Assembly: GCA_948442365.1 (NCBI GenBank)
Contig: CAOJRU010000004.1
Span: forward strand, 4,304 to 68,303
DNA length: 64,000 nucleotides
Source: an uncultured Clostridium sp.
Lineage (GTDB): Bacteria > Bacillota > Clostridia > TANB77 > CAG-508
Direction of reading: 5' to 3'
The position numbers and the translations under genes were made by a program. The notes beneath the pieces were generated by a model, which worked only from the letters and a program-made list of their open reading frames with translations, did not search any database and was not told the origin of the DNA. Shown piece after piece: positions 13,257 through 48,802 of this stretch; the stretch's first letter is position 1, and every line of letters starts with the position of its first letter.

Positions 13257-13329
13257 TCAAGTTTCGACTTTTTGTAAGTGTAAAAAAATTATATATTACA
13301 ACCTACACTTACAAAAAGCCGAAATTTGA
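13257..13329. repeat. intergenic hairpin repeat, family A copy 2, in the radA-disA spacer
   Basis: tcaagtttcgactttttgtaagtgt ... acacttacaaaaagccgaaatttga, 23 of 25 complementary. The loop aaaaaaattatatattacaacct resembles the copy 1 loop. Confidence 0.6.
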
Positions 13330-13335
13330 ATTTTT

Positions 13336-14704
13336 TTATCCTATTGCTTTTTTGATTGCTTCCTTTACATTTCCAACGCCTATTATATCTAATTTATATT
13401 TATCTTTCAAGTCTTTTTTGTTACTTTCTGGAATAATACAAGATTTAAAGCCTAAACGTTCCGCTTCTTTTAGTCTTTTTTCGATTAAATTAATTCTTCT
13501 AACTTCCCCTGTCAAGCCAACTTCTCCCATAATTACCATATCTTTTGGAATAGGACTATTTTTAAAGCTAGAAGTTGTTGCCATAATAATTCCTAAATCA
13601 ATAGAAGGCTCATTAATTTTTAATCCACCAGCTACATTTAAGTAAACATCTTGTGTTCCTAACATAAGTCCTGCCTTTTTTTCCAAGACAGCAATTAGTA
13701 AAGATAATCTATTAAAATCAATTCCATTGGCTGTTCTTTTCGCATAACCAAAAGCAGTTTGTGCCGTCAAAGCCTGCAATTCCACTAAAATTGGTCTTGT
13801 CCCTTCCATACTAGAAACAATGCAAGAACCGGATGGATTATCTTCTCGTTCTGAAATCAAAACATCAGATGGATTTGTAATTTCGCACATTCCCTCTTCT
13901 CTCATCTCAAACATGCCAATTTCATTTGTAGAACCAAATCTATTTTTTACACCTCTTAAAATTCGATAAGAAAAATATCTTTCTCCTTCTAGATACAGAA
14001 CCGTATCTACCATATGTTCTAACACTCGTGGACCTGCAATATTGCCTTCTTTGGTAACATGTCCAATAATAATGGTAGTAATGGCCCTAGATTTGCAAAC
14101 TCTCATAACTTGAGAAGTAATTTCTCTTACTTGACTCACACTTCCAGCTGCTGCTGATAATTCTTCTGAATACATTGTTTGAATGGAATCAATAATAACT
14201 AATTTAGGGTTATTATCTATAATTGCTTGATTTACAATATCAATATCGGTTTCCCCTAAAAATAAAATATCCTCATTATTGATATGCAATCGATCTGCTC
14301 TCATTTTTATCTGTTCGGCTGATTCTTCTCCTGAAACATATAAGACTTTTCCTTCTCCTTTTACTTTATCACAAATTTGAAGAATTAAGGTAGACTTTCC
14401 AATTCCTGGTTCTCCTCCGCAACAAAACAAGTGAACCTTTTACTAATCCGCCACCTAACACATTATCCAATTCTCCAAATCCAGTGGAAGTTCTTATGGT
14501 TTCCTTTGCCTCATAAGAATTTAACTTTTGTGGTATATTGCTTCTAACATCTTTTGACTTTAAACTGCTATTTTTGCTTTCTACTATTTTTTGTTCAAAA
14601 AAACTGTTCCAATTATTACAAGCTGGACACTTACCTAGCCATTTACTTGACTCATTTCCACATTCATTACATACAAAAATTGTTTTACTTTTTGCCATGT
14701 CCAT
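13336..14704 (-). CDS. radA: DNA repair protein RadA/Sms, split by a single-base frameshift near 14433
   Basis: ORF 14369..14704 encodes the zinc-ribbon N-terminus (FVCNECGNESSKWLGKCPACNNWNSF ... ELDNVLGGGLVKGSLVL). ORF 13336..14430 resumes one frame over with CCGGEPGIGKSTL (Walker A) and the Lon-like C-terminal domain. Removing one T from the T-run restores GSLV-CGGEPGIGKST. Confidence 0.85.
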
Positions 14705-15059
14705 TGGGGATGGTTCTTTATGGACATTGTATTCCTTGTTAGAACCACGTTCGTTACAGGTGTTACCTGTAATGCAATATGTTTTTCCTTTTCAATCCCA
14801 TATTTTGGAACGTTTCCCCTCCTCCTTTCGTTACTTTTTTGTTTAATTACTCTTTCTACTTAAACCTATCTTTCTTGGTTATTCTATTTACCTCTACTCT
14901 ATTAAAACAAAAAAAGTATAGCATAATTTGGTTTAATTTGCTATACTTTTTAATTAATTCACTGAAAAATTACAATCTCTTGATTTTTTTATCCTATTTT
15001 TTCGTGTTATCTATTTAAAATGCTACAGCTAGCAATCCCAGCTGGACATCAAACAGATA

Positions 15060-20156: not shown

Positions 20157-20251
20157 ACGAATCACAAGGAATTGTCAAAAGCTCCATTTGCAATGGTAGA
20201 CGCTTGACAACTGCTAGCAATGTCCAAAAAGAACCATCCTCAATGGACACG

Positions 20252-21527
<1,276 letters not shown>

Positions 21528-22645: not shown

Positions 22646-22834
22646 GCTTGTTTTCTCTCCTTTATTTAGAAGTTTTCTATGTTTCTTATTTTACCATATT
22701 TTTTTAGTTTTGTATACTATTATAAATTTTAAGCTTCACTTAATTGCAAAGCCATTTTCTGTGGAACGCTTCCTATTATAGAAAGTTCTGAGAACTTTCC
22801 TATAATAGAATAAAAGCTGATATACAAAAGTATA

Positions 22835-23287
22835 TCAACTAATTTTCAATAATTTTTCTTCCATATATTGTTGCCCTAATTCAAGTCTATGTATTCTGGC
22901 ATTAAATATTTTATGTTCTTCTCTATTTATTTCTAACTCTTTTAATATTTCCTTTTGAATTTTTATGCTTTGATCCAATGTTGCTTGTATTTTGTTATCT
23001 CTTTTCTCCAAAAATATAACAATTTCATTTAATTCTTGTGCTATTTCTTTACTTTGTTTTCCTATCTTATTATCTACTTCTACTAATATTTTCTTGCTTT
23101 GTTGTTCCATCTTCTGATCTACTTCTTCTAATATCTTTTTACTTTGTTGTTCCATCTTCTGATCTACTTCTTCTAATATCTTTTTACTTTGTTGTTCCAT
23201 CTTTTGGTCTATTTCTACTCTTATCTCTCGTACTTCTTCTTTTACACCTTTAACTTCTGTAAGAATTGTTTCTAATATTTTTTCCAT
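22835..23287 (-). CDS. coiled-coil protein with three tandem 15-aa repeats (EVDQKMEQQSKKILE)
   Basis: Start chosen at MEKILETIL, with GGAGGTGAGAGA before the ATG. A 45-bp DNA repeat x3 lies at about 23093..23232. Confidence 0.5.
   Translation of the reverse strand: MEKILETILTEVKGVKEEVREIRVEIDQKMEQQSKKILEEVDQKMEQQSKKILEEVDQKMEQQSKKILVEVDNKIGKQSKEIAQELNEIVIFLEKRDNKIQATLDQSIKIQKEILKELEINREEHKIFNARIHRLELGQQYMEEKLLKIS
23093..23232. repeat. 45-bp tandem repeat x3 within the coiled-coil protein gene
   Basis: actttgttgttccatcttctgatctacttcttctaatatcttttt repeated with 1-2 substitutions. Confidence 0.8.
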
Positions 23288-32214: not shown

Positions 32215-32482
32215 TTTAAGTTTCAAGTTTTTTTGGTAAGATTAGCTCCCACCTCTTGGCATATAATATGGTTATTTTTCATAAATTCTTCGGTTCCCTT
32301 CATAATTCAAGGAATTCTAATATAATTTTACGGGTCCTTTCCAAGACAAGCTTGAACTCTTACCGTAAAATGATTAAGAATTCCTAATCTTACTCCAGTC
32401 ACATTCATCTTTTATTCAAAATAACCATATTATATGCCAAGAAGTAGAAGCTAATCTTGTGAGAAAAAAACCGAAACTTAAA
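32215..32482. repeat. structured intergenic element, family B copy 1 (about 268 bp; ~64-bp terminal inverted repeats; conserved ~110-nt core hairpin)
   Basis: Outer arms tttaagtttcaagtttttttggtaagattagctcccacctcttggcatataatatggttatttt (left arm) and aaaataaccatattatatgccaagaagtagaagctaatcttgtgagaaaaaaaccgaaacttaaa (right arm). The core aggaattctaatataattttacgg...ccgtaaaatgattaagaattcct is homologous to 47625..47829. Confidence 0.7.
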
Positions 32483-37277: not shown

Positions 37278-40200
37278 TTAATTATTTTTTTCTATCTGCT
37301 TTTCTTCTAGTTCCTCTTCTTCTATCTCCTCTTTTTCTTCTGGTTCTTCTTTTACTTCATCTTTTGGTTTTTCTATCAATTCTCCTTCTGTTTCTTCTTC
37401 CATCGTATCTGGTAATGAGTCTACTATTGGTAATTCTTCTTGCATTTCTGTTTCTTGTTTTACTTCATTTTTTTCTTCTGGCACTTCCATCATAAATGTT
37501 CTAGTAGTTACTGTTTCAAAAAGCATTTTGTTATTTCTTAATACTATTTTACTGTTTCCTTTGAACATTCCTACCATTTCATTTGGTTGCATATTTGCTT
37601 GTTGTGTCTTATTGGTCGAAGTATTATTATTGTTTGTTAATTTTACTTCAATGTAATATTCTTTGCTTGTATCTAAATCATATACTACTCTATCATAGTA
37701 GTAATTTAATCCACCTTCATGTACTACATGCATTCCCATACTATAACTTCCATCCGTTGCTTTTAATGTCATTTCTGGCAATCCATTTGGAATATTGGCT
37801 ACTCCATCTACCCATTCTGCTATTAAAATATTCCCATGTATATATTCTCTTCCTATTTCATTGAAATCAATATGCATTGTCTTTAAGTCTGTATTAATGT
37901 CTCCTTTGTATTTGCTTCCATCTTTCATCTTAATCTTATTGTCTTCTGCTACTAATTTAATGGCATTGTATTTTCCTATTTGTTTGTTTGGTAATTTAGC
38001 AATTTGTACCGTATTGGTTGAAATATTATTTCCATTTGTTAATTTTACTTCTATCACATATTCTTTGCTACTGTCTAAATTGTCCATTACTCTGTCATAG
38101 GTATAGCTTAATCCTCCATTATGTGCTAGATGCATTCCTGTCCAGAAACTTCCATCGGTTGCTTTAATAATCATTTCTGGTAATTTATTTGGTACATTCG
38201 CTACACCATTAATCCATTCTGCTATTAAAATTTCTCCATAAATGTAATTTCTTCCTACCTCATTTTGAGCTAAATCAATTGTTTTTAAATCTGTATTAAT
38301 ATCGCCTCTATATTCATTTCCTTTGAATACTATCTTATTGTTTTCTATGGTTAAGTTTTTGTCTTTGAACATACCTACATTTCTTGAAGCATTTAAGTTT
38401 GCTCTTTGTTGTTTGTTGGTTCCTATATTTTTATTTCCCGTCAATTTTACTTCTATATAGTATTCTTTTTTGATATCTAAATTATCAATTACTCTGTCAT
38501 AATAATAATTTAATCCGCCTACATGTGCTACATACATTCCCATACTATAACTTCCATCCGTTGCTTTTAATGTCATTTCTGGTAAGCCATTTGGTGTATT
38601 AGCCATTCCATCAACCCATTCTGCTATTAAAATATTTCCATGTAGATATTCTTTTCCTACTTCATTGATTCCTATATACATCGTTTGTAAATCAGTATTA
38701 ATATCCCCTTTATATAAGCTTCCGTCTATCATTTTTATTTTATTATTTTCTGCTATTAATTTTACTTGATCATATTTGCCAATTTCTTTATTTGGCAATT
38801 TAGCTATTTGTGCTTTGCTGTTTCCTTTATTATTGATACCTGCTAATTTTACTTCAATTTCATATTCTTTTGTTACATCTAAATTATCTACAACTCTGTC
38901 ATACGTATAACTTAGTCCTCCATTATGCACTAAATGAATTCCTGTCCAGAAGCTTCCATCCGTTGCTTTGATAATCATTTCTGGTAATCCTTCTGGAACA
39001 TTAGCTACTCCATTTATCCATTCTGCTATTAAAATTTCTCCATAAATATAATGTCTTCCTACTTCATTTTGAGCTAGATTAATTGTCTTTAAGTCTGTGT
39101 TAATGTTTCCTACATATACTGGTTTTATTTTATTATCTTCTAGTAATAGTGTTCTTCCTTTAAAAGTTCCAATTTCTTTATTTGGTAGTAATACGGTTTG
39201 TGTCTTTCTGTTTCCTATATTATCCTCTCCTGTTAAAGTTGCCTCTATATAATATTGTTTTGATAAATCGATTTCATCAATAAACACATCATAATAATAA
39301 TTTAATCCTTGTAAATGGCTAATATACATTGGAATATTTCTTGAGCCATCGGTTGCTTTTAGCACTAATTCTGGTAATGAATTTGGTACATAAGCAACAT
39401 TGTTTTTCCATTCTGCTACTAACATATTTCCACTAATATAATATCTTCCTTGTGCATTTTGGTTCAATTTTATTTCTTTTAAGTCAGTATTAATATCTCC
39501 TATATACCCTCCAGTAGAGAAATAAATTTTATTGTTTTTGGTTTTTATGGTAGTTCCTTTATATTCTCCTACTGTCATATTTGGCATATTTACGTTCTGT
39601 GTCTTATTGGTTGATATATTTTTATCTGTTGTCAATTTGGCTTCTAAATAATATTCTTTATTTGTATCTAAGGTATCTAATATTCTATAATAAGAATAAC
39701 TTAATCCTCCATTATGAGTTACATTGATTCCTTGCACAATACTTCTGTCCGTTGATTTAATTGTCATTTCTGGTATCGTTTTTGGTACACATGCTACCCC
39801 ATTCACCCATTCTGCTATTAAAACTTCTCCTGTTATATAACTTCTTCCATCTGCTTCTTTTCCGATTTGCATCGTTTTTAAATCTGTATTGATGTTTCCG
39901 TAATATTCAGGATTTGGCTCTTGTGAAAGTGTTGCTGGCATATTTTCATAAATTGGAATTACAAATTCAAAATCTCTATTTAATAATAATTTTGCTCTAT
40001 TATAGGCATCATACATTAAACTAGCCTCATTTTTAGCAGCCAATAAGTTTTGCATATATTGATGCCAATATAAACCACTATAACTATCATCCACATCAAA
40101 TTTTTGTAAATATAAGGTATTTTGTCCTACATTAAGATATTTGTCCTTAATAAAAGTTCCTCCGCCTGCAATGGATAATGATCTAGATGTCCAATTTTCT

Positions 40201-40922
40201 CGTAGTGCTCTGGCTAATCCATTCGTTTTTACCTCTGCTGGACTGTTTCCTGTTGCTCCTATACTAAATAGATTATATAACCCTTTATAAACTACGCCAT
40301 TGGTTCCTAAATATTCTTCTCCTGAACTTAAGGTAGAAGTTCCTGAGCTTCCTTGTTCTTGGATCGTTCTAGTTACCAAGTGAAAGGCATTTATATTATT
40401 GTCACGTGCTGCATTGTAAAGAGCAACTATGTTATCCCAATCTTCTGTTAAAAAAGAATTTTGTGCCGCTATATGAATGGCTTTTGTATCTAACGTACCT
40501 GCAGAAGTATCTAATTTTTGAAATTGAAATATATTTTTGGCATCCAAATATAAGCGTGGATCCATTAAGTATTTTATCGCTTCTTCTGACGCACAATACC
40601 ATCCTGTATCATATAATTTAGAACCACAATCTGGGCATCTCCACTCTTCTGAATAATTATTTGGTACTAGGTTTCTTCCATGAACTCTTTCATTTCTAAT
40701 AACCGTTTCCCAATCTAATTTTGTATATAAAACTTTTATCTTTGGATAAATGGTTTGTAATTGTTTTATTTTATCCTTATAACCAGGATATTTTGCCTCA
40801 TCAATCCCATTGATATCTGAGCTAATAGTAGCAGCTTGTACTTTACCTGTGTATAATAAAATAGCCACTAATACAGCCAATAAAAATATTCCGATTTTCA
40901 TAATCTTATGTACAAATTTCAT
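37278..40922 (-). CDS. secreted peptidoglycan hydrolase: N-terminal GH73-like N-acetylglucosaminidase domain, 7 repeats of a ~125-aa module, and an E/K-rich tail
   Basis: Signal peptide MKFVHKIMKIGIFLLAVLVAILLYTGKVQA. Catalytic region with GQNTLYLQKFDV...GLYWHQY (glucosaminidase-like). The repeats share GDINTDLKT...ILIAEW.NGVAN.P...PEM.IKATDGS...H.GGL.Y.YDRV.D.LD..KEY.IEVKLT. The last ~330 aa are identical to 41207..44530. Confidence 0.65.
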   Translation of the reverse strand: MKFVHKIMKIGIFLLAVLVAILLYTGKVQAATISSDINGIDEAKYPGYKDKIKQLQTIYPKIKVLYTKLDWETVIRNERVHGRNLVPNNYSEEWRCPDCGSKLYDTGWYCASEEAIKYLMDPRLYLDAKNIFQFQKLDTSAGTLDTKAIHIAAQNSFLTEDWDNIVALYNAARDNNINAFHLVTRTIQEQGSSGTSTLSSGEEYLGTNGVVYKGLYNLFSIGATGNSPAEVKTNGLARALRENWTSRSLSIAGGGTFIKDKYLNVGQNTLYLQKFDVDDSYSGLYWHQYMQNLLAAKNEASLMYDAYNRAKLLLNRDFEFVIPIYENMPATLSQEPNPEYYGNINTDLKTMQIGKEADGRSYITGEVLIAEWVNGVACVPKTIPEMTIKSTDRSIVQGINVTHNGGLSYSYYRILDTLDTNKEYYLEAKLTTDKNISTNKTQNVNMPNMTVGEYKGTTIKTKNNKIYFSTGGYIGDINTDLKEIKLNQNAQGRYYISGNMLVAEWKNNVAYVPNSLPELVLKATDGSRNIPMYISHLQGLNYYYDVFIDEIDLSKQYYIEATLTGEDNIGNRKTQTVLLPNKEIGTFKGRTLLLEDNKIKPVYVGNINTDLKTINLAQNEVGRHYIYGEILIAEWINGVANVPEGLPEMIIKATDGSFWTGIHLVHNGGLSYTYDRVVDNLDVTKEYEIEVKLAGINNKGNSKAQIAKLPNKEIGKYDQVKLIAENNKIKMIDGSLYKGDINTDLQTMYIGINEVGKEYLHGNILIAEWVDGMANTPNGLPEMTLKATDGSYSMGMYVAHVGGLNYYYDRVIDNLDIKKEYYIEVKLTGNKNIGTNKQQRANLNASRNVGMFKDKNLTIENNKIVFKGNEYRGDINTDLKTIDLAQNEVGRNYIYGEILIAEWINGVANVPNKLPEMIIKATDGSFWTGMHLAHNGGLSYTYDRVMDNLDSSKEYVIEVKLTNGNNISTNTVQIAKLPNKQIGKYNAIKLVAEDNKIKMKDGSKYKGDINTDLKTMHIDFNEIGREYIHGNILIAEWVDGVANIPNGLPEMTLKATDGSYSMGMHVVHEGGLNYYYDRVVYDLDTSKEYYIEVKLTNNNNTSTNKTQQANMQPNEMVGMFKGNSKIVLRNNKMLFETVTTRTFMMEVPEEKNEVKQETEMQEELPIVDSLPDTMEEETEGELIEKPKDEVKEEPEEKEEIEEEELEEKQIEKNN

Positions 40923-41206: not shown

Positions 41207-44200
41207 TTATTTACTCTCTTTCATTTTGTCTTTTTCTTCTTGTGTATCGTTTTTTTCTAACTCTTCTATTTCTTCGCTTTCTTTATCTTCTGCTTTTTCT
41301 TCTTTCTCTTCTTTTTTCTCTTCTTCTATTCTTGTATTTTCTATCGAATCTGTTGTTGGTAACTCTTCTAATATTTCAGTTTCTTGCTTTATTTCTTCTT
41401 TTTCTTCTGGTTTTTCTATCATAAATGTTCTAGTAGTTACTGTTTCAAAAAGCATTTTATTATTTCTTAATACTATTTTACTATTTCCTTTAAACATTCC
41501 TACCATTTCATTTGGTTGCATATTTGCTTGTTGTGTCTTATTGGTCGAAGTATTATTATTGTTTGTTAATTTTACTTCAATGTAATATTCTTTGCTTGTA
41601 TCTAAATCATATACTACTCTATCATAGTAGTAATTTAATCCACCTTCATGTACTACATGCATTCCCATACTATAACTTCCATCCGTTGCTTTTAATGTCA
41701 TTTCTGGCAATCCATTTGGAATATTGGCTACTCCATCTACCCATTCTGCTATTAAAATATTCCCATGTATATATTCTCTTCCTATTTCATTGAAATCAAT
41801 ATGCATTGTCTTTAAGTCTGTATTAATGTCTCCTTTGTATTTGCTTCCATCTTTCATCTTAATCTTATTGTCTTCTGCTACTAATTTAATGGCATTGTAT
41901 TTTCCTATTTGTTTGTTTGGTAATTTAGCAATTTGTACCGTATTGGTTGAAATATTATTTCCATTTGTTAATTTTACTTCTATCACATATTCTTTGCTAC
42001 TGTCTAAATTGTCCATTACTCTGTCATAGGTATAGCTTAATCCTCCATTATGTGCTAGATGCATTCCTGTCCAGAAACTTCCATCGGTTGCTTTAATAAT
42101 CATTTCTGGTAATTTATTTGGTACATTCGCTACACCATTAATCCATTCTGCTATTAAAATTTCTCCATAAATGTAATTTCTTCCTACCTCATTTTGAGCT
42201 AAATCAATTGTTTTTAAATCTGTATTAATATCGCCTCTATATTCATTTCCTTTGAATACTATCTTATTGTTTTCTATGGTTAAGTTTTTGTCTTTGAACA
42301 TACCTACATTTCTTGAAGCATTTAAGTTTGCTCTTTGTTCTTTATTGGTTCCTATATTTTTATTTCCTGTTAATTTTACTTCTATATAATATTCTTTTTT
42401 CGTATCTAAATCATAGATTACTCTGTCATAATAATATTTTAGACCTCCTAAATGTGCTACATGCATTCCCATACTGTAACTTCCATCGGTTGCTTTTAAT
42501 GTCATTTCTGGTAAACCACTTGGAATATTGGCTACCCCATCTATCCATTCTGCTATCAAGATATTTCCATGTATATATTCTCTTCCTACTTCATTTACTC
42601 CAATATACATCGTTTGTAAATCGGTATTGATATCTCCCCTATAAATACTTCCATCTATCATTTTTATTTTATTATTTTCTACTACTAATCTTACTTGATC
42701 ATATCTTCCAATTTCCTTATTTGGCAATTTTGCTATTTGTGCTTTGCTGTTTCCTTTATTATTGATACCTGTTAGTTTTACTTCAATTTCATATTCTTTC
42801 GTTGGATCTAAATTATCCATTACTCGATCGTACGTATAACTTAATCCTCCATTGTGTACTACATGCATACCTGTCCAAAAACTTCCATCCGTTGCTTTGA
42901 TAATCATTTCTGGTAATCCTTCTGGGATATTAGCCACTCCATCCATCCATTCTGCTATTAAAATTTCTCCATAGATATAATGTCTTCCCACTTCATTTCT
43001 GGCTAGGTTAATTGTCTTTAAGTCAGTATTAATAGCTCCTATATATGTTGGTTTTATTTTGTTATCTTCTAGTAATAGTGTTCTTCCTTTAAAAGTTCCA
43101 ATTTCCTTATTTGGTAATACTATAGTTTGTGTCTTTTGCTTTCCTATATTATCTTCTCCTACTAACGTTGCTTCTAAATAATATTGTTTTGCTAAATCTA
43201 ATGTATCTATTGCTACATTGTATTGATAATTAATTCCACTATCATACGTAATATTGACTGGTCTATCGATACTGTTATCTGTTGCTTTTAATCTTACCAC
43301 TGGCATTTTCTTTGGTATATTGGCTACTCCATTCACCCATTCTGCAATATATAGATTGCCTGAAATAGTATTTCCTTTTAGTTCTATTTGTTTTAAATCG
43401 GTATTAATATCTCCTACATATTCACCTGTTGAGAAATAAACTTTATTGTTTTTCGTTTTTATCGTAGTTCCCTTATATTCTCCTACTGTCATATTTGGCA
43501 TATTTATTGTCTGTATTTTATTATTTGATACATTATTAGCTGAAGTTAACTTAGCCTCTAAATAATATTCCCTATTAATATCTAAGGTATCTAATATTCT
43601 ATAATAAGAATAACTCAATCCTCCATTAGGAATCACATTCAATCCTTGTATAACTGCTCCATCGGTTGATTTGATTGTCATTTCTGGTGTACCATTTGGA
43701 ATATTGGCTACTCCATTCACCCATTCTGCTATTAGTACCTCTCCTGTTATATAGCTTCTTCCATCTGCTTCTTTTCCTGTTTGCATCGTTTTTAAATCCG
43801 TATTGATATCTCCTACATAGTCTCTTCTAAATAAATCTTTATTGGCAATAATCGCTTTTGCATCTGCTTCTGCCATTTTGTTTAACATAGCATCATTTAA
43901 ATAATGTTCTCTATCATAAGCGTTATTAATAAAAGCATGTTCTACTAATACAGCTGGAATATCCATATGCATTGGCCAACTTATAATACCATAATAATCA
44001 GCAACCGTTCCATCTGGATAGATGTCATTTGGTGTTCCTACTCTTACTTTTGGCTTAAAAGCAAAAGAACTAACTCCCACATTTCTTAAATTTTGTAATA
44101 TATCTTCTCCTAATTTATTAGAATATTCAAAATATCTTCTTTGTTTGGTATTATGTGTCACATATACTTCTGCTCCTGATAACCTACTAGAAGAATCGTT

Positions 44201-44530
44201 TGAATTAATATGAAAACTTACTAATAAATCGGCATTATTTTCTTTGGCTCTTTGTGCTCTTGGATATCTATCTAGTGTTTCCCAATCTTCCTTTGTTAAA
44301 ATCCCCTTAATTCCTGGTGTGGCATCTAATATTTCCTTTACTCTTACTGCTATTTTCCATGTTAAATCTTTTTCCACTAATGTTCCACCTTGTGCTCCTG
44401 GTTCACTTCCCCCATGTCCTGGATCCAGTGCTACTATAATATCATTTGCTGCATAACTGCATGTAGTAACAAGTAAGCATAACCCCATAAAAATCAATGC
44501 TGTCATTATTTTTATTCTTTTTTCTTTCAT
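41207..44530 (-). CDS. secreted N-acetylmuramoyl-L-alanine amidase (Amidase_3) with 7 repeats of the same ~125-aa module and an E/K-rich tail
   Basis: Signal peptide, then IIVALDPGHGGSEPGA...NADLLVSFHINS (Amidase_3 zinc ligand region). The C-terminal ~1 kb of DNA is near-identical to 37440..38400 (offset 3929; identical embedded track ORFs 37583..37864 and 41512..41793). Confidence 0.75.
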   Translation of the reverse strand: MKEKRIKIMTALIFMGLCLLVTTCSYAANDIIVALDPGHGGSEPGAQGGTLVEKDLTWKIAVRVKEILDATPGIKGILTKEDWETLDRYPRAQRAKENNADLLVSFHINSNDSSSRLSGAEVYVTHNTKQRRYFEYSNKLGEDILQNLRNVGVSSFAFKPKVRVGTPNDIYPDGTVADYYGIISWPMHMDIPAVLVEHAFINNAYDREHYLNDAMLNKMAEADAKAIIANKDLFRRDYVGDINTDLKTMQTGKEADGRSYITGEVLIAEWVNGVANIPNGTPEMTIKSTDGAVIQGLNVIPNGGLSYSYYRILDTLDINREYYLEAKLTSANNVSNNKIQTINMPNMTVGEYKGTTIKTKNNKVYFSTGEYVGDINTDLKQIELKGNTISGNLYIAEWVNGVANIPKKMPVVRLKATDNSIDRPVNITYDSGINYQYNVAIDTLDLAKQYYLEATLVGEDNIGKQKTQTIVLPNKEIGTFKGRTLLLEDNKIKPTYIGAINTDLKTINLARNEVGRHYIYGEILIAEWMDGVANIPEGLPEMIIKATDGSFWTGMHVVHNGGLSYTYDRVMDNLDPTKEYEIEVKLTGINNKGNSKAQIAKLPNKEIGRYDQVRLVVENNKIKMIDGSIYRGDINTDLQTMYIGVNEVGREYIHGNILIAEWIDGVANIPSGLPEMTLKATDGSYSMGMHVAHLGGLKYYYDRVIYDLDTKKEYYIEVKLTGNKNIGTNKEQRANLNASRNVGMFKDKNLTIENNKIVFKGNEYRGDINTDLKTIDLAQNEVGRNYIYGEILIAEWINGVANVPNKLPEMIIKATDGSFWTGMHLAHNGGLSYTYDRVMDNLDSSKEYVIEVKLTNGNNISTNTVQIAKLPNKQIGKYNAIKLVAEDNKIKMKDGSKYKGDINTDLKTMHIDFNEIGREYIHGNILIAEWVDGVANIPNGLPEMTLKATDGSYSMGMHVVHEGGLNYYYDRVVYDLDTSKEYYIEVKLTNNNNTSTNKTQQANMQPNEMVGMFKGNSKIVLRNNKMLFETVTTRTFMIEKPEEKEEIKQETEILEELPTTDSIENTRIEEEKKEEKEEKAEDKESEEIEELEKNDTQEEKDKMKESK

Positions 44531-46638: not shown

Positions 46639-47595
46639 TTATATGATACTAAATATTTTACAATAAATTGGATAGGTAAAAGCATTAACCGTTCTCATAT
46701 AAAAATTTTTTCCACCTTTTCCTTGTTTCAATATTAAATTTTTCTTCCAGTTTGGAAATTTGGTATTTAAGTTTGTCCAATTTTCTTGTAATACTTTCTT
46801 TCTTACTTTTTTGTTTTGTATTTTTACCATTCGAAGTAAAGAACTACAAAGTAAATATCTGCTATAGATATATTCTAGTTGTAATTGATATTCTTCCCAA
46901 ATTCCTTTTTGTTGATAGTATGTAATCACATGCTCTAGCACATCAAAAATTTCTTTGGTTCGTTCATTTTGTACGTTAGCAATGGATCCTTCTCTTTGTA
47001 CATAATGAATACATGGTTTTTTTAAAAAAGAAATTTTAGTAAGATAAGGAATGAGCCTATAGGTAAACTCTACATCTTCATAATAATACCCTTTTGGAAA
47101 TTGAACTTGCGATGTTTCCAAAATTTCTCTCTTAATTAATTTATTCCATGCCACCACTCTTACTTTTTCTATCATTTCTTTTTTATTATGATAGATTTCT
47201 CCTCTGTCTTCTTTTCTTTTATCTGGATATTCCCAATAAAAATCGCATTCTACCATATCACTTTGTTCTTGTTTAGCTAATTGATACATTTCTTCATAAG
47301 TCGTTAATTCCACATAATCATCAGAATCTAAGAATGCAACATATTCTCCTGTAGCATAAGGTATTCCATAGTTTCTAGCGTCAGATAAACCTCCGTTTTC
47401 TTTTTCCAAATACATTATTTTATTGGGATATCTATTTTGGTATTCTTTGGCTATTTCTCCAGAACCATCTTTTGATCCATCATTTACTAAAATAATTGCA
47501 ATCTCTTTTAAAGACTGATTTATTAAACTTTCTAAGCATTTTTCCAAATGATTTTCTACATTATAAATAGGAACAATAATACTTACTTTTGGCAT
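46639..47595 (-). CDS. GT2 family glycosyltransferase
   Basis: VSIIVPIYNVENHLEKCLESLINQ ... ILVNDGSKDGS ... LDSDDY. Confidence 0.8.
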   Translation of the reverse strand: MPKVSIIVPIYNVENHLEKCLESLINQSLKEIAIILVNDGSKDGSGEIAKEYQNRYPNKIMYLEKENGGLSDARNYGIPYATGEYVAFLDSDDYVELTTYEEMYQLAKQEQSDMVECDFYWEYPDKRKEDRGEIYHNKKEMIEKVRVVAWNKLIKREILETSQVQFPKGYYYEDVEFTYRLIPYLTKISFLKKPCIHYVQREGSIANVQNERTKEIFDVLEHVITYYQQKGIWEEYQLQLEYIYSRYLLCSSLLRMVKIQNKKVRKKVLQENWTNLNTKFPNWKKNLILKQGKGGKNFYMRTVNAFTYPIYCKIFSII

Positions 47596-47624
47596 AATCT
47601 CTCCTTTAATTAGTACTTTTCAGT

Positions 47625-47829
47625 TAATACTGTCAACCTAAAATATTATCCTAAAAAGGAAGACAGTTCGTTCAAGCTAATTTTCGTAGAAATTCTAAAT
47701 CCATTTTATGGCACCCTTCCACGTACAAGACGTGAACTCTTTCCATAAAATGAATTAAGAATTTCTATCTCAATTACTTTCAATTCACTGTCTTCCTTTT
47801 TAGGATAATATTTTAGGTTGACAGTATTA
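47625..47829. repeat. structured intergenic element, family B copy 2 (perfect 43-bp terminal inverted repeats; conserved core hairpin)
   Basis: taatactgtcaacctaaaatattatcctaaaaaggaagacagt and its exact reverse complement 120 nt downstream. The core tagaaattctaaatccattttatgg...ccataaaatgaattaagaatttcta is homologous to 32215..32482. Confidence 0.75.
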
Positions 47830-47848
47830 GTTGAATCGTAACATTAAT

Positions 47849-48802
47849 TTATTTCATTTTTAAATATAATTTGACATTAAATCTTAAAAGGAATCTTTTA
47901 ATTCGTTGCTTCCCATTATATGGCTGTATATTTCGATATAATTTTCTTTCTTTTATCTCTTTGATATATTCTTCAAAATCATTTCCTTTTAAGTTTTTTG
48001 CTTTTATAATAACCGTATTGGTATAATATCTTTTAATTCGTTCTTTTGATTGTTTACTAATATCCATCTTATCAATCTTTTTTACTGCGTTATCATAATG
48101 TAATAAAACATCTTTTACCTTTTTTTTATCTTTTTGATAATCTGAATTTCTCACAATACTATTATTCGTTTGTGAATAATAGTATCCATATTCATTGGTA
48201 GAAACCACACTTTGGGCTTGTATTAGTATTAACGGCGTTAAACCAAAATCCTCGTGATAAGTTCCTACTGTATAGCTAAAATGATAATCCATAAAAAATT
48301 CTCTGCGATATAAATAAATACATGCTACCTCTAAAAAAGTATCTTTGGGACACAATTTTTCAAAAGCTTCTTCTCCTGTACATTTTTCAAATATAGGACC
48401 ATCTAATTTTTGAATTTTATTTTCCTTCTCATCGATTGTTTGCATTTTAAATTTTATTAAATCTATGTTCTGTTCCTCATACTTTTCTAAATTTTTGTAT
48501 AAGTTCTTGTCAATATAATCATCTGAATCAATAAAGGATAAATATTTTCCTGTTGCATGCTGAACGCCATAATTTCTAGCATCGGATAATCCTCCATTTT
48601 CTTTCTTCCAGTATTGTATATTGACATTGTTTTGATTGTTTTCTATCCATTGTTTAATAACGGCTTCTGAATGATCGGTTGAGCCATCATTAATAATTAT
48701 GATTTCTAAATCTTTCATTGTCTGATTTTTAATGGATTCTAGACATCTTTCTACATATTTTTCTGTATTATATACTGGCACAATAACACTTATTTTAGGC
48801 AT
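47849..48802 (-). CDS. GT2 family glycosyltransferase
   Basis: ISVIVPVYNTEKYVERCLESIKNQ ... IIINDGSTDHS ... IDSDDY. Confidence 0.8.
   Translation of the reverse strand: MPKISVIVPVYNTEKYVERCLESIKNQTMKDLEIIIINDGSTDHSEAVIKQWIENNQNNVNIQYWKKENGGLSDARNYGVQHATGKYLSFIDSDDYIDKNLYKNLEKYEEQNIDLIKFKMQTIDEKENKIQKLDGPIFEKCTGEEAFEKLCPKDTFLEVACIYLYRREFFMDYHFSYTVGTYHEDFGLTPLILIQAQSVVSTNEYGYYYSQTNNSIVRNSDYQKDKKKVKDVLLHYDNAVKKIDKMDISKQSKERIKRYYTNTVIIKAKNLKGNDFEEYIKEIKERKLYRNIQPYNGKQRIKRFLLRFNVKLYLKMK

Follow-up and report, generated by a model that had tools for sequence, protein, structure and literature searches.

The window, by which we mean the whole 64,000-nt stretch of DNA analysed here, carries a large near-palindrome between two GT2 glycosyltransferase genes (Table 1). 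The genes belong to a cell-wall polysaccharide cluster with GT1, GT2, DUF6020, O-antigen-ligase-like and ABC-2 genes. The palindrome, referred to hereafter as copy 2, occupies the entire gap between the two GT2 genes: the stop codon of the upstream gene (47849-47851) adjoins it, and the ribosome-binding site of the downstream gene (AAGGAGAG, about 47598-47606) begins directly past its other end. An identical downstream GT2 protein is encoded on 14 contigs. Because copy 2 sits in a polysaccharide operon between a stop codon and a ribosome-binding site, it is probably co-transcribed as a hairpin of ~110 bp that the operon tolerates. A promoter and terminator scan of 47300-48100 found no promoter-like or terminator-like site in the core between the arms; a TTGACA-N18-TAATTA arrangement in the outer arm was rejected as a promoter because it fails the consensus rule.

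Table 1. Coordinates of copy 2, its parts and neighbouring genes, and of copy 1, in the window.
Feature	Coordinates	Strand	Remarks
Copy 1	32215..32482	+	full-length member, canonical ends TTTAAGTTTC...CCGAAACTTAAA
Downstream GT2 glycosyltransferase gene	46639..47595	-	PF00535, E = 4.5e-36
Whole inserted element (copy 2)	47607..47848	.	242-bp near-palindrome; limits set by empty site in L226
Left perfect 43-bp arm	47625..47667	.	exact string match
Invertible 119-bp core	47668..47786	.	both orientations among strains
Conserved apex	47688..47766	+	consensus structure over 30 members
Apex P1	47688-47696 / 47758-47766
Apex P2	47701-47711 / 47743-47753
Apex left loop CACCCTTC	47712-47719
Apex P3	47720-47723 / 47731-47734		loop 47724-47730
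Apex right loop AACTCTTT	47735-47742
Right perfect 43-bp arm	47787..47829	.	exact reverse complement of left arm
Upstream GT2 glycosyltransferase gene	47849..48802	-	PF00535, E = 2.3e-35

Exact string matching confirmed the perfect 43-bp inverted repeat of copy 2 that had been described from the sequence alone; the left arm, TAATACTGTCAACCTAAAATATTATCCTAAAAAGGAAGACAGT, and its reverse complement cannot be extended by one base either way. These arms are not the termini of the element, as they had been taken to be, since the empty site of a relative (see below) places the limits of the inserted segment outside them. A repeat finder returned a longer imperfect palindrome at 47614-47840, with arms of 111 nt that are 80% complementary and 5 nt between them. 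The predicted RNA fold of 47596-47848 (253 nt) reached -114.3 kcal/mol on the gene-sense strand and -106.6 on the opposite strand. This stability is far beyond chance, as shuffles of the same segment averaged -42.8 (z = -16.7; 0/200 equally stable).

A covariance model of the family recognised exactly two copies in the window, at 108.9 and 105.8 bits, while the next match scored 22 bits. The ~80-nt centre of copy 1 aligns with that of copy 2, in agreement with the sequence-only reading that the internal cores are homologous. That reading also held the arms of the two copies to be unrelated. The arms of copy 2 indeed fail to align with those of copy 1, but they are not unique, for homologous, diverged arms of the copy 2 type occur in members of the same subfamily (L010, L016, L038 and L049).

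Other repeats and one unusual reading frame were noted elsewhere in the window. Two adjacent paralogous giant ORFs of 1214 and 1107 aa (37278-40922 and 41207-44530) contain ~402-nt tandem repeats, 11 copies over both genes; Pfam detects an Amidase_3 domain at the N-terminus of the second ORF and nothing in the first. Tandem 45-nt repeats at 23027-23251 lie within a 162-aa ORF, likewise without a Pfam match, and the number of units differs from that of the CANPNZ orthologue (L037). A small 32-nt hairpin (TGTCCAT...ATGGACA) occurs at 14698-14729 and 20218-20249 in opposite orientations, 5.5 kb apart and 94% complementary, and this pair brackets radical-SAM, MreB, TsaE and TsaD/RimI genes. The match of the Obg-like ORF called at 20252-21268 to the GTP1_OBG domain is confined to positions 85-155; the N-terminal portion is apparently absent from the ORF or lies in a different frame.

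The repeat family and its mobility

A scan of one genome per species with the pattern TGAACTCTTNCCNTAAAATG matched 63 loci. About 56 of these are true members with a full apex, all belonging to uncultured Clostridia represented by human and animal gut MAGs, with several copies per genome; the nearest named protein match bore the source label Clostridium sp. CAG:343. CANPNZ, which is 93-95% identical to the window, has at least 15 copies. A metagenome scan with a degenerate pattern anchored on the left loop only gave 120 loci and, after filtering, 35 true members, in which the right loop YGAACWYTTTCC was conserved though absent from the search requirement. Copies found by the model outside the pattern had the same loops with small variants (GGCNCCCTTTCA, GAACATTTTCC). 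Together, at least 90 copies were sampled. Members are 242-520 bp long, with hairpins spanning 180-520 nt, and all 56 examined copies are intergenic. No gene recurs beside them, the largest cluster of shared neighbours (6 loci) looking like synteny. Searches of viral contigs, plasmids and phages returned no family matches, and an origin of the element from any of these was rejected on that account.

The consensus apex consists of P1 (9 bp), a 4x4 loop, P2 (12 bp), an 8x8 loop (CACCCTTC / AACTCTTT) and P3, which is variable and closed by CA...TG. Over 30 members it comprises 25 pairs, 10 of which show double changes. About 88% of arm positions are in Watson-Crick pairs, yet arm sequences are unrelated between subfamilies, which bears out the earlier proposal that the arms are free to drift as long as they pair. 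Two candidate functions of the core were discarded. A conserved small ORF or type I toxin was rejected because the 10-codon ORF of copy 2 is not present in other subfamilies, and, as read from the sequence, the spacing or half-sites of the apex misfit a sigma-54, parS or dif-like site. At two CANPFO loci (L061 and L063) several members separate RHS/YD-repeat toxin cassettes from small ORFs downstream; since the flanks are repeated there too, the members may mark cassette boundaries.

Empty sites were found on comparison with relatives, as the sequence-only reading had proposed looking for. The copy 2 locus is filled in the window and empty in L226 (~92% nucleotide identity), where the sequence reads ...ATGAAATAA GGT AAGGAGAAATT ATG..., with 3 nt in place of the 242 in the window. 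Relatives that share 84% or 79% identity with the window in the downstream GT2 protein have the same gene order, with 5-9 nt between the two genes. The lack of the element in all of these means that it was inserted exactly between the stop codon and the next ribosome-binding site. Three further sites carry a member in CANPNZ but not in the window. The CANPNZ member at L037 2865-3126 has a 9-bp duplication, and the window has in its place (22716-22810) an unrelated stretch of ~95 nt with a short hairpin, GAAAGTTCTGAGAACTTTC, so this is not a clean empty site.

Copies of the copy 1 type are homologous over their whole length, with ends TTTAAGTTTCGG...CCGAAACTTAAA. Five clean target duplications of 8-9 bp were found, all flanking copies with TTTAAGTTTCGG ends: GATAGCCTT (L037), TGGAAAAA and TTGTATAA (L034), TAATAAATT (L048) and AAAGTTGAA (L029). 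The ends of copy 2 resemble the canonical ends weakly (TTTAATTAGTAC...) and other subfamilies end differently; at the copy 2 locus neither canonical TTTAAGTTTCGG ends nor a clear target duplication was seen. Within ~1 Mb of fetched DNA, no pair of TTTAAGTTTCGG/CCGAAACTTAAA-type ends 0.55-6 kb apart encloses a transposase, and none of the window ORFs tested has a transposase domain. The sequence-only reading had regarded many copies with conserved terminal inverted repeats and target-site duplications as the mark of a classic MITE, speaking against an RNA; this is largely what the family displays, with the ends conserved in many members.

The TTTAAGTTTCGG...CCGAAACTTAAA ends are shared by many members with a second repeat family. 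Hairpins of this second family (L004 3300-3489, L026 5197-5388, L029 7746-7938 and L034 4748-4936) have similar outer arms and 8-9-bp target duplications, and a centre of ~110 bp that is unrelated and not palindromic. It had no match in Rfam. The window has a 73-bp mini-version of it at 13257-13329, between DisA-like and RadA-like genes. At L004 3159-3300 only the right half of a copy-1-type element is present, up to the apex, directly against a second-family member, in what resembles a nested or truncating insertion.

Conservation and inversion of the centre

To compare rates of change, four orthologous pairs were aligned after the centre (apex plus linkers, 130 nt per pair) had been re-flipped. 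The centre showed 5 changes in 520 positions (1.0% divergence), the arms 73 in 666 (11.0%) and the mostly coding flanks 289 in 2736 (10.6%). The centre thus evolves about ten times more slowly than the flanks (Fisher p = 5e-17), whereas arms and flanks do not differ (p = 0.78), indicating that the arms drift neutrally. The conserved part at orthologous loci is therefore the centre and not the ends, as had been noticed from the window alone. We rejected ascertainment as the cause, since the search pattern fixed only 18 of the 130 positions. A small number of pair-preserving double changes was found in the arms between orthologues (5 observed, 1.6 expected, P = 0.025), which is modest direct evidence that the arms are maintained.

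Two readings of the conserved centre remain: purifying selection on a function that is independent of orientation, and recent replacement or conversion, in either orientation, via the symmetric inner arms. The centres of orthologues are fully identical even at positions that vary across the family, a pattern that might be due to recent replacement or gene conversion and not to selection. At L008 there are 4 changes in ~100 nt of centre despite flanks that are 96% identical to those of L060. Copy 2 as a whole shares 99.5% identity with its L040 counterpart, against 94% for the 4 kb around it; the high identity reaches ~130 nt into the upstream gene, so that a local recombination tract is as likely here as selection. 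Judging from the second family, which has the same ends and a different centre, the centre may be a separable module.

A conserved centre that is separable from the terminal module, in copies that are intergenic and independent of orientation, would also be expected of a REPIN-like replicator. The apex hairpin with its single-stranded flanks would then serve as the module recognised by a dedicated single-copy protein, whether RAYT-like, HUH-type or of another kind, acting on extruded or single-stranded DNA, and the family would be maintained vertically in co-evolution with its host. The roughly 10-fold greater conservation of the centre than of the flanks at species-level divergence fits this proposal, and so does a hairpin shape that is retained while the arm sequence varies, as in REPIN spacers (PMC3337134). 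We nevertheless consider it unlikely. The 8-9-bp target duplications indicate a DDE-type staggered cut and not an HUH mechanism, no gene recurs beside the copies, and a crude HUH/Y1 motif screen of 2,761 ORFs from the fetched loci gave two spurious matches only and no HUH-like ORF. In addition, reading of the apex revealed no GTAG or CGTC tag, the kind of tag that defines REP superfamilies (PMC3733652).

In its CANPNZ orthologue (L040), the flanks and both 43-bp arms of copy 2 are collinear with the window while the 119 bp between the arms are reverse-complemented. The centre was flipped in five of six orthologous comparisons (window/L040, L002/L014, L013/L059, L055/L060 and L008/L060) and unflipped in the sixth, L008/L055. 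Base-by-base alignment of the first three of these pairs showed that only the centre of ~120-130 bp is inverted; the outer imperfect arms stay collinear, which places the exchange in the innermost well-matched repeat. At the copy 2 locus, nine independent contigs with identical flanking proteins, as well as L220, have the orientation of the window, and L214 (the same contig as L040), L215, L216, L221, L223 and L224 have the opposite one. Two of these, L221 and L224, share 97.2-97.7% identity with the window; their element matches in reverse at 204 of 204 positions. At least two inversions, one of them recent, are needed to account for this history. The comparison was between strains, from consensus assemblies, and at least at the consensus level the nine uniform contigs argue against fast switching.

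By reasoning, the flips are not an artefact of assembly: the 43-bp repeat is shorter than the largest k of SPAdes- and MEGAHIT-type assemblies, in which junction k-mers span the repeat and so fix the orientation. Logan contigs (k=31) break in the 43-bp arms (L069, L070, L072, L073, L080-L082, L217-L219, L222 and L225), starting or stopping ~50-60 nt from the flanking genes.

Both orientations at one locus among very close strains, with the core alone flipping, raise the question of whether copy 2 is an inverton in which recombinase action inverts the 119-bp core bounded by the 43-bp repeats and thereby varies expression of the downstream glycosyltransferase genes. One way this could work is through mRNA loops that are CU-rich and anti-SD-like in one orientation and GGA-rich in the other; as read from the sequence, the sense RNA of the flipped state would contain CACCCUUCC and CUCUUUCC, with partial complementarity to the ribosome-binding site. 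Surface-polysaccharide operons are moreover a typical setting of invertons (PMC11892184). We find this explanation quite improbable, as nine independent contigs of the window lineage share one orientation, no recombinase domain was found in the window ORFs tested, the core is without a promoter-like or terminator-like site, and family members adjoin unrelated genes in all arrangements, convergent included. Invertase sites are normally the conserved part, whereas here the repeats adjoining the core differ between subfamilies.

For the 42 copies flanked by called genes on each side, orientation relative to the flanking genes was unbiased (14 ++, 10 --, 12 +- and 6 -+), 18 lying between convergent or divergent genes. 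Selection at the RNA level is expected to favour wobble pairs. On the mRNA-sense strand of the 24 copies between co-directional genes, arm mismatches were 33 G·U and 30 A·C (p = 0.80), along with 161 transversion mismatches. Taken together, the unbiased orientation, the flips and the lack of a wobble preference indicate that arm pairing is a property of the DNA. In Rfam, only tRNAs in the window passed the gathering thresholds, and the best match of the element was to a microRNA model (E = 0.31).

The sequence-only reading had proposed a structured cis-acting RNA, a hairpin of the operon transcript with a selected apex and a closing helix free to covary, serving as an RNase III site, a roadblock or a protein-binding RNA. 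Its very stable predicted hairpin, the double changes in 10 of 25 apex pairs, the conserved unpaired loops and the position of the element between co-directional genes, where it is probably transcribed, agree with such an RNA, but we rate it the least probable of the explanations considered, since the element has no orientation preference relative to transcription, flips would present complementary loop sequences to transcripts, wobble pairs are not in excess, 18 of 42 copies lie between convergent or divergent genes, Rfam offers no match and the classic features of a transposon are present.

Interpretation

Our preferred reading, to which we assign a probability of about 0.6, is that copy 2 is a fixed insertion of a non-autonomous, foldback-type MITE-like repeat whose centre is constrained and flips. 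It belongs to a previously undescribed family dispersed through intergenic regions in a clade of uncultured gut Clostridia with low GC content. The family would move by cut-and-ligate transposition that leaves 8-9-bp target duplications, as the members with TTTAAGTTTCGG ends demonstrate, and a DDE transposase would presumably act in trans. After insertion the arms would drift at the neutral rate and occasionally be re-homogenised, with inversion of the segment between them. The perfect 43-bp arms of copy 2 would then represent the present state of this drift and re-homogenisation and not an RNA helix under selection.

Going by published work on inverted repeats, the likely cause is that the two arms interact at the DNA level, by recombination between them or by polymerase template switching. 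When a polymerase switches template between imperfect inverted repeats, the arms become alike and the spacer is inverted (PMC8604942), and hairpins with apparent compensatory changes can be created and maintained in this way (PMC8794818, PMC13100816). By analogy, template switching may account for both the perfect arms and the flipped centre of copy 2.

The central ~130 bp (stems P1-P3 and the two pyrimidine-rich 8-nt loops GGCACCCTTCCA and TGAACTCTTTCC) appear to be under strong constraint at each locus. Because it is functional in either orientation relative to its neighbours, the centre is most likely to act at the DNA level, perhaps by binding a protein as a duplex or an extruded hairpin; a putative protein-binding role of this kind is the one we favour. 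Long RNA hairpins and their cleavage by RNase III, which the sequence-only reading had stressed, are plausible as consequences of co-transcription rather than as the element's reason to exist; RNase III processing would be a reasonable consequence because the element is probably co-transcribed as a long hairpin.

In an ordinary MITE the ends would be better conserved than the centre; here the opposite holds, and the centre may be an entity of its own. We tentatively extend the preferred reading in this direction, with the odds clearly against the extension: P1-P3 and the loops GGCACCCTTCCA and TGAACTCTTTCC might form a self-contained functional cassette recognised by a putative dedicated protein. 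One version would be a genome-wide set of recombinase-flipped switches that show SD-like (GGA-rich) or anti-SD-like (CU-rich) loops in transcripts; another would be a REPIN-like replicator of inverted architecture, with a conserved tip and free arms. If true, the cassette would explain together the ~10-fold conservation over neighbouring coding DNA, the repeated flips and the differing end scaffolds.

The host clade, uncultured gut Clostridia of low GC content, is poorly known, and the family adds an abundant, undescribed repeat to it. The family also provides a direct, population-level example of an inverted repeat that keeps perfect arms while its spacer flips. Divergence of 1% in the centre, against 11% in arms and flanks, across species suggests a function. 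If a binding protein or recombinase exists, a density of about one site per 30 kb (two in the 64-kb window) would make this a genome-wide system. There is a warning for assembly as well: contigs built at k=31 break within the arms, and strains that are almost identical can have the centre in opposite orientations. Repeats of this kind can break up MAGs and be mistaken for phase variation.

Comparison with known systems

No sequence similarity to catalogued families was found in Rfam or in the viral, plasmid and phage searches. Evolution of inverted repeats and quasipalindromes by template switching predicts homogenised arms and spacer inversion, both of which are seen here (PMC8604942), and substitutions that look compensatory are expected from it as well (PMC8794818). 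It is a mutational process and not an element, and it leaves the conservation of the spacer unexplained.

Invertons are invertible promoters between inverted repeats in gut bacteria (PMC11892184, PMC11602134). Copy 2 resembles them in having a segment of ~120 bp between inverted repeats, in both orientations and beside surface-glycan genes. It differs in having no nearby recombinase and no promoter in the segment, in its uniform orientation over 9 contigs of one lineage, and in being one of at least 90 dispersed copies, in which the interior, and not the repeats, is conserved.

REPINs are paired REP sequences that are mobilised by RAYT transposases and leave no target duplications. Their conserved REP modules lie outside and their variable spacer in the middle, which is the opposite of the arrangement here; moreover, the present family has target duplications, and the crude HUH motif screen of the fetched ORFs found no RAYT. 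The likeness lies in their being hairpin-forming, non-autonomous and long-persisting repeats that combine a conserved module with a remainder of which only the pairing is kept (PMC3337134).

Correia/NEMIS of Neisseria, ERIC/IRU of enterobacteria and RUP of pneumococcus are bacterial MITEs with whole-length hairpins. They are small, non-coding, multicopy and intergenic, vary in presence among strains, have target duplications, and often lie within operons, where they are co-transcribed as long hairpins. The present family is likewise small, non-coding, multicopy and intergenic, with presence/absence differences and target duplications; bacterial MITEs in general have been reviewed (PMC3184786). 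In Correia/NEMIS, ERIC/IRU and RUP, the ends or the whole length are conserved, whereas in the family described here the central 130 bp are conserved ~10-fold above the arms, the arms differ between subfamilies and the centre inverts.
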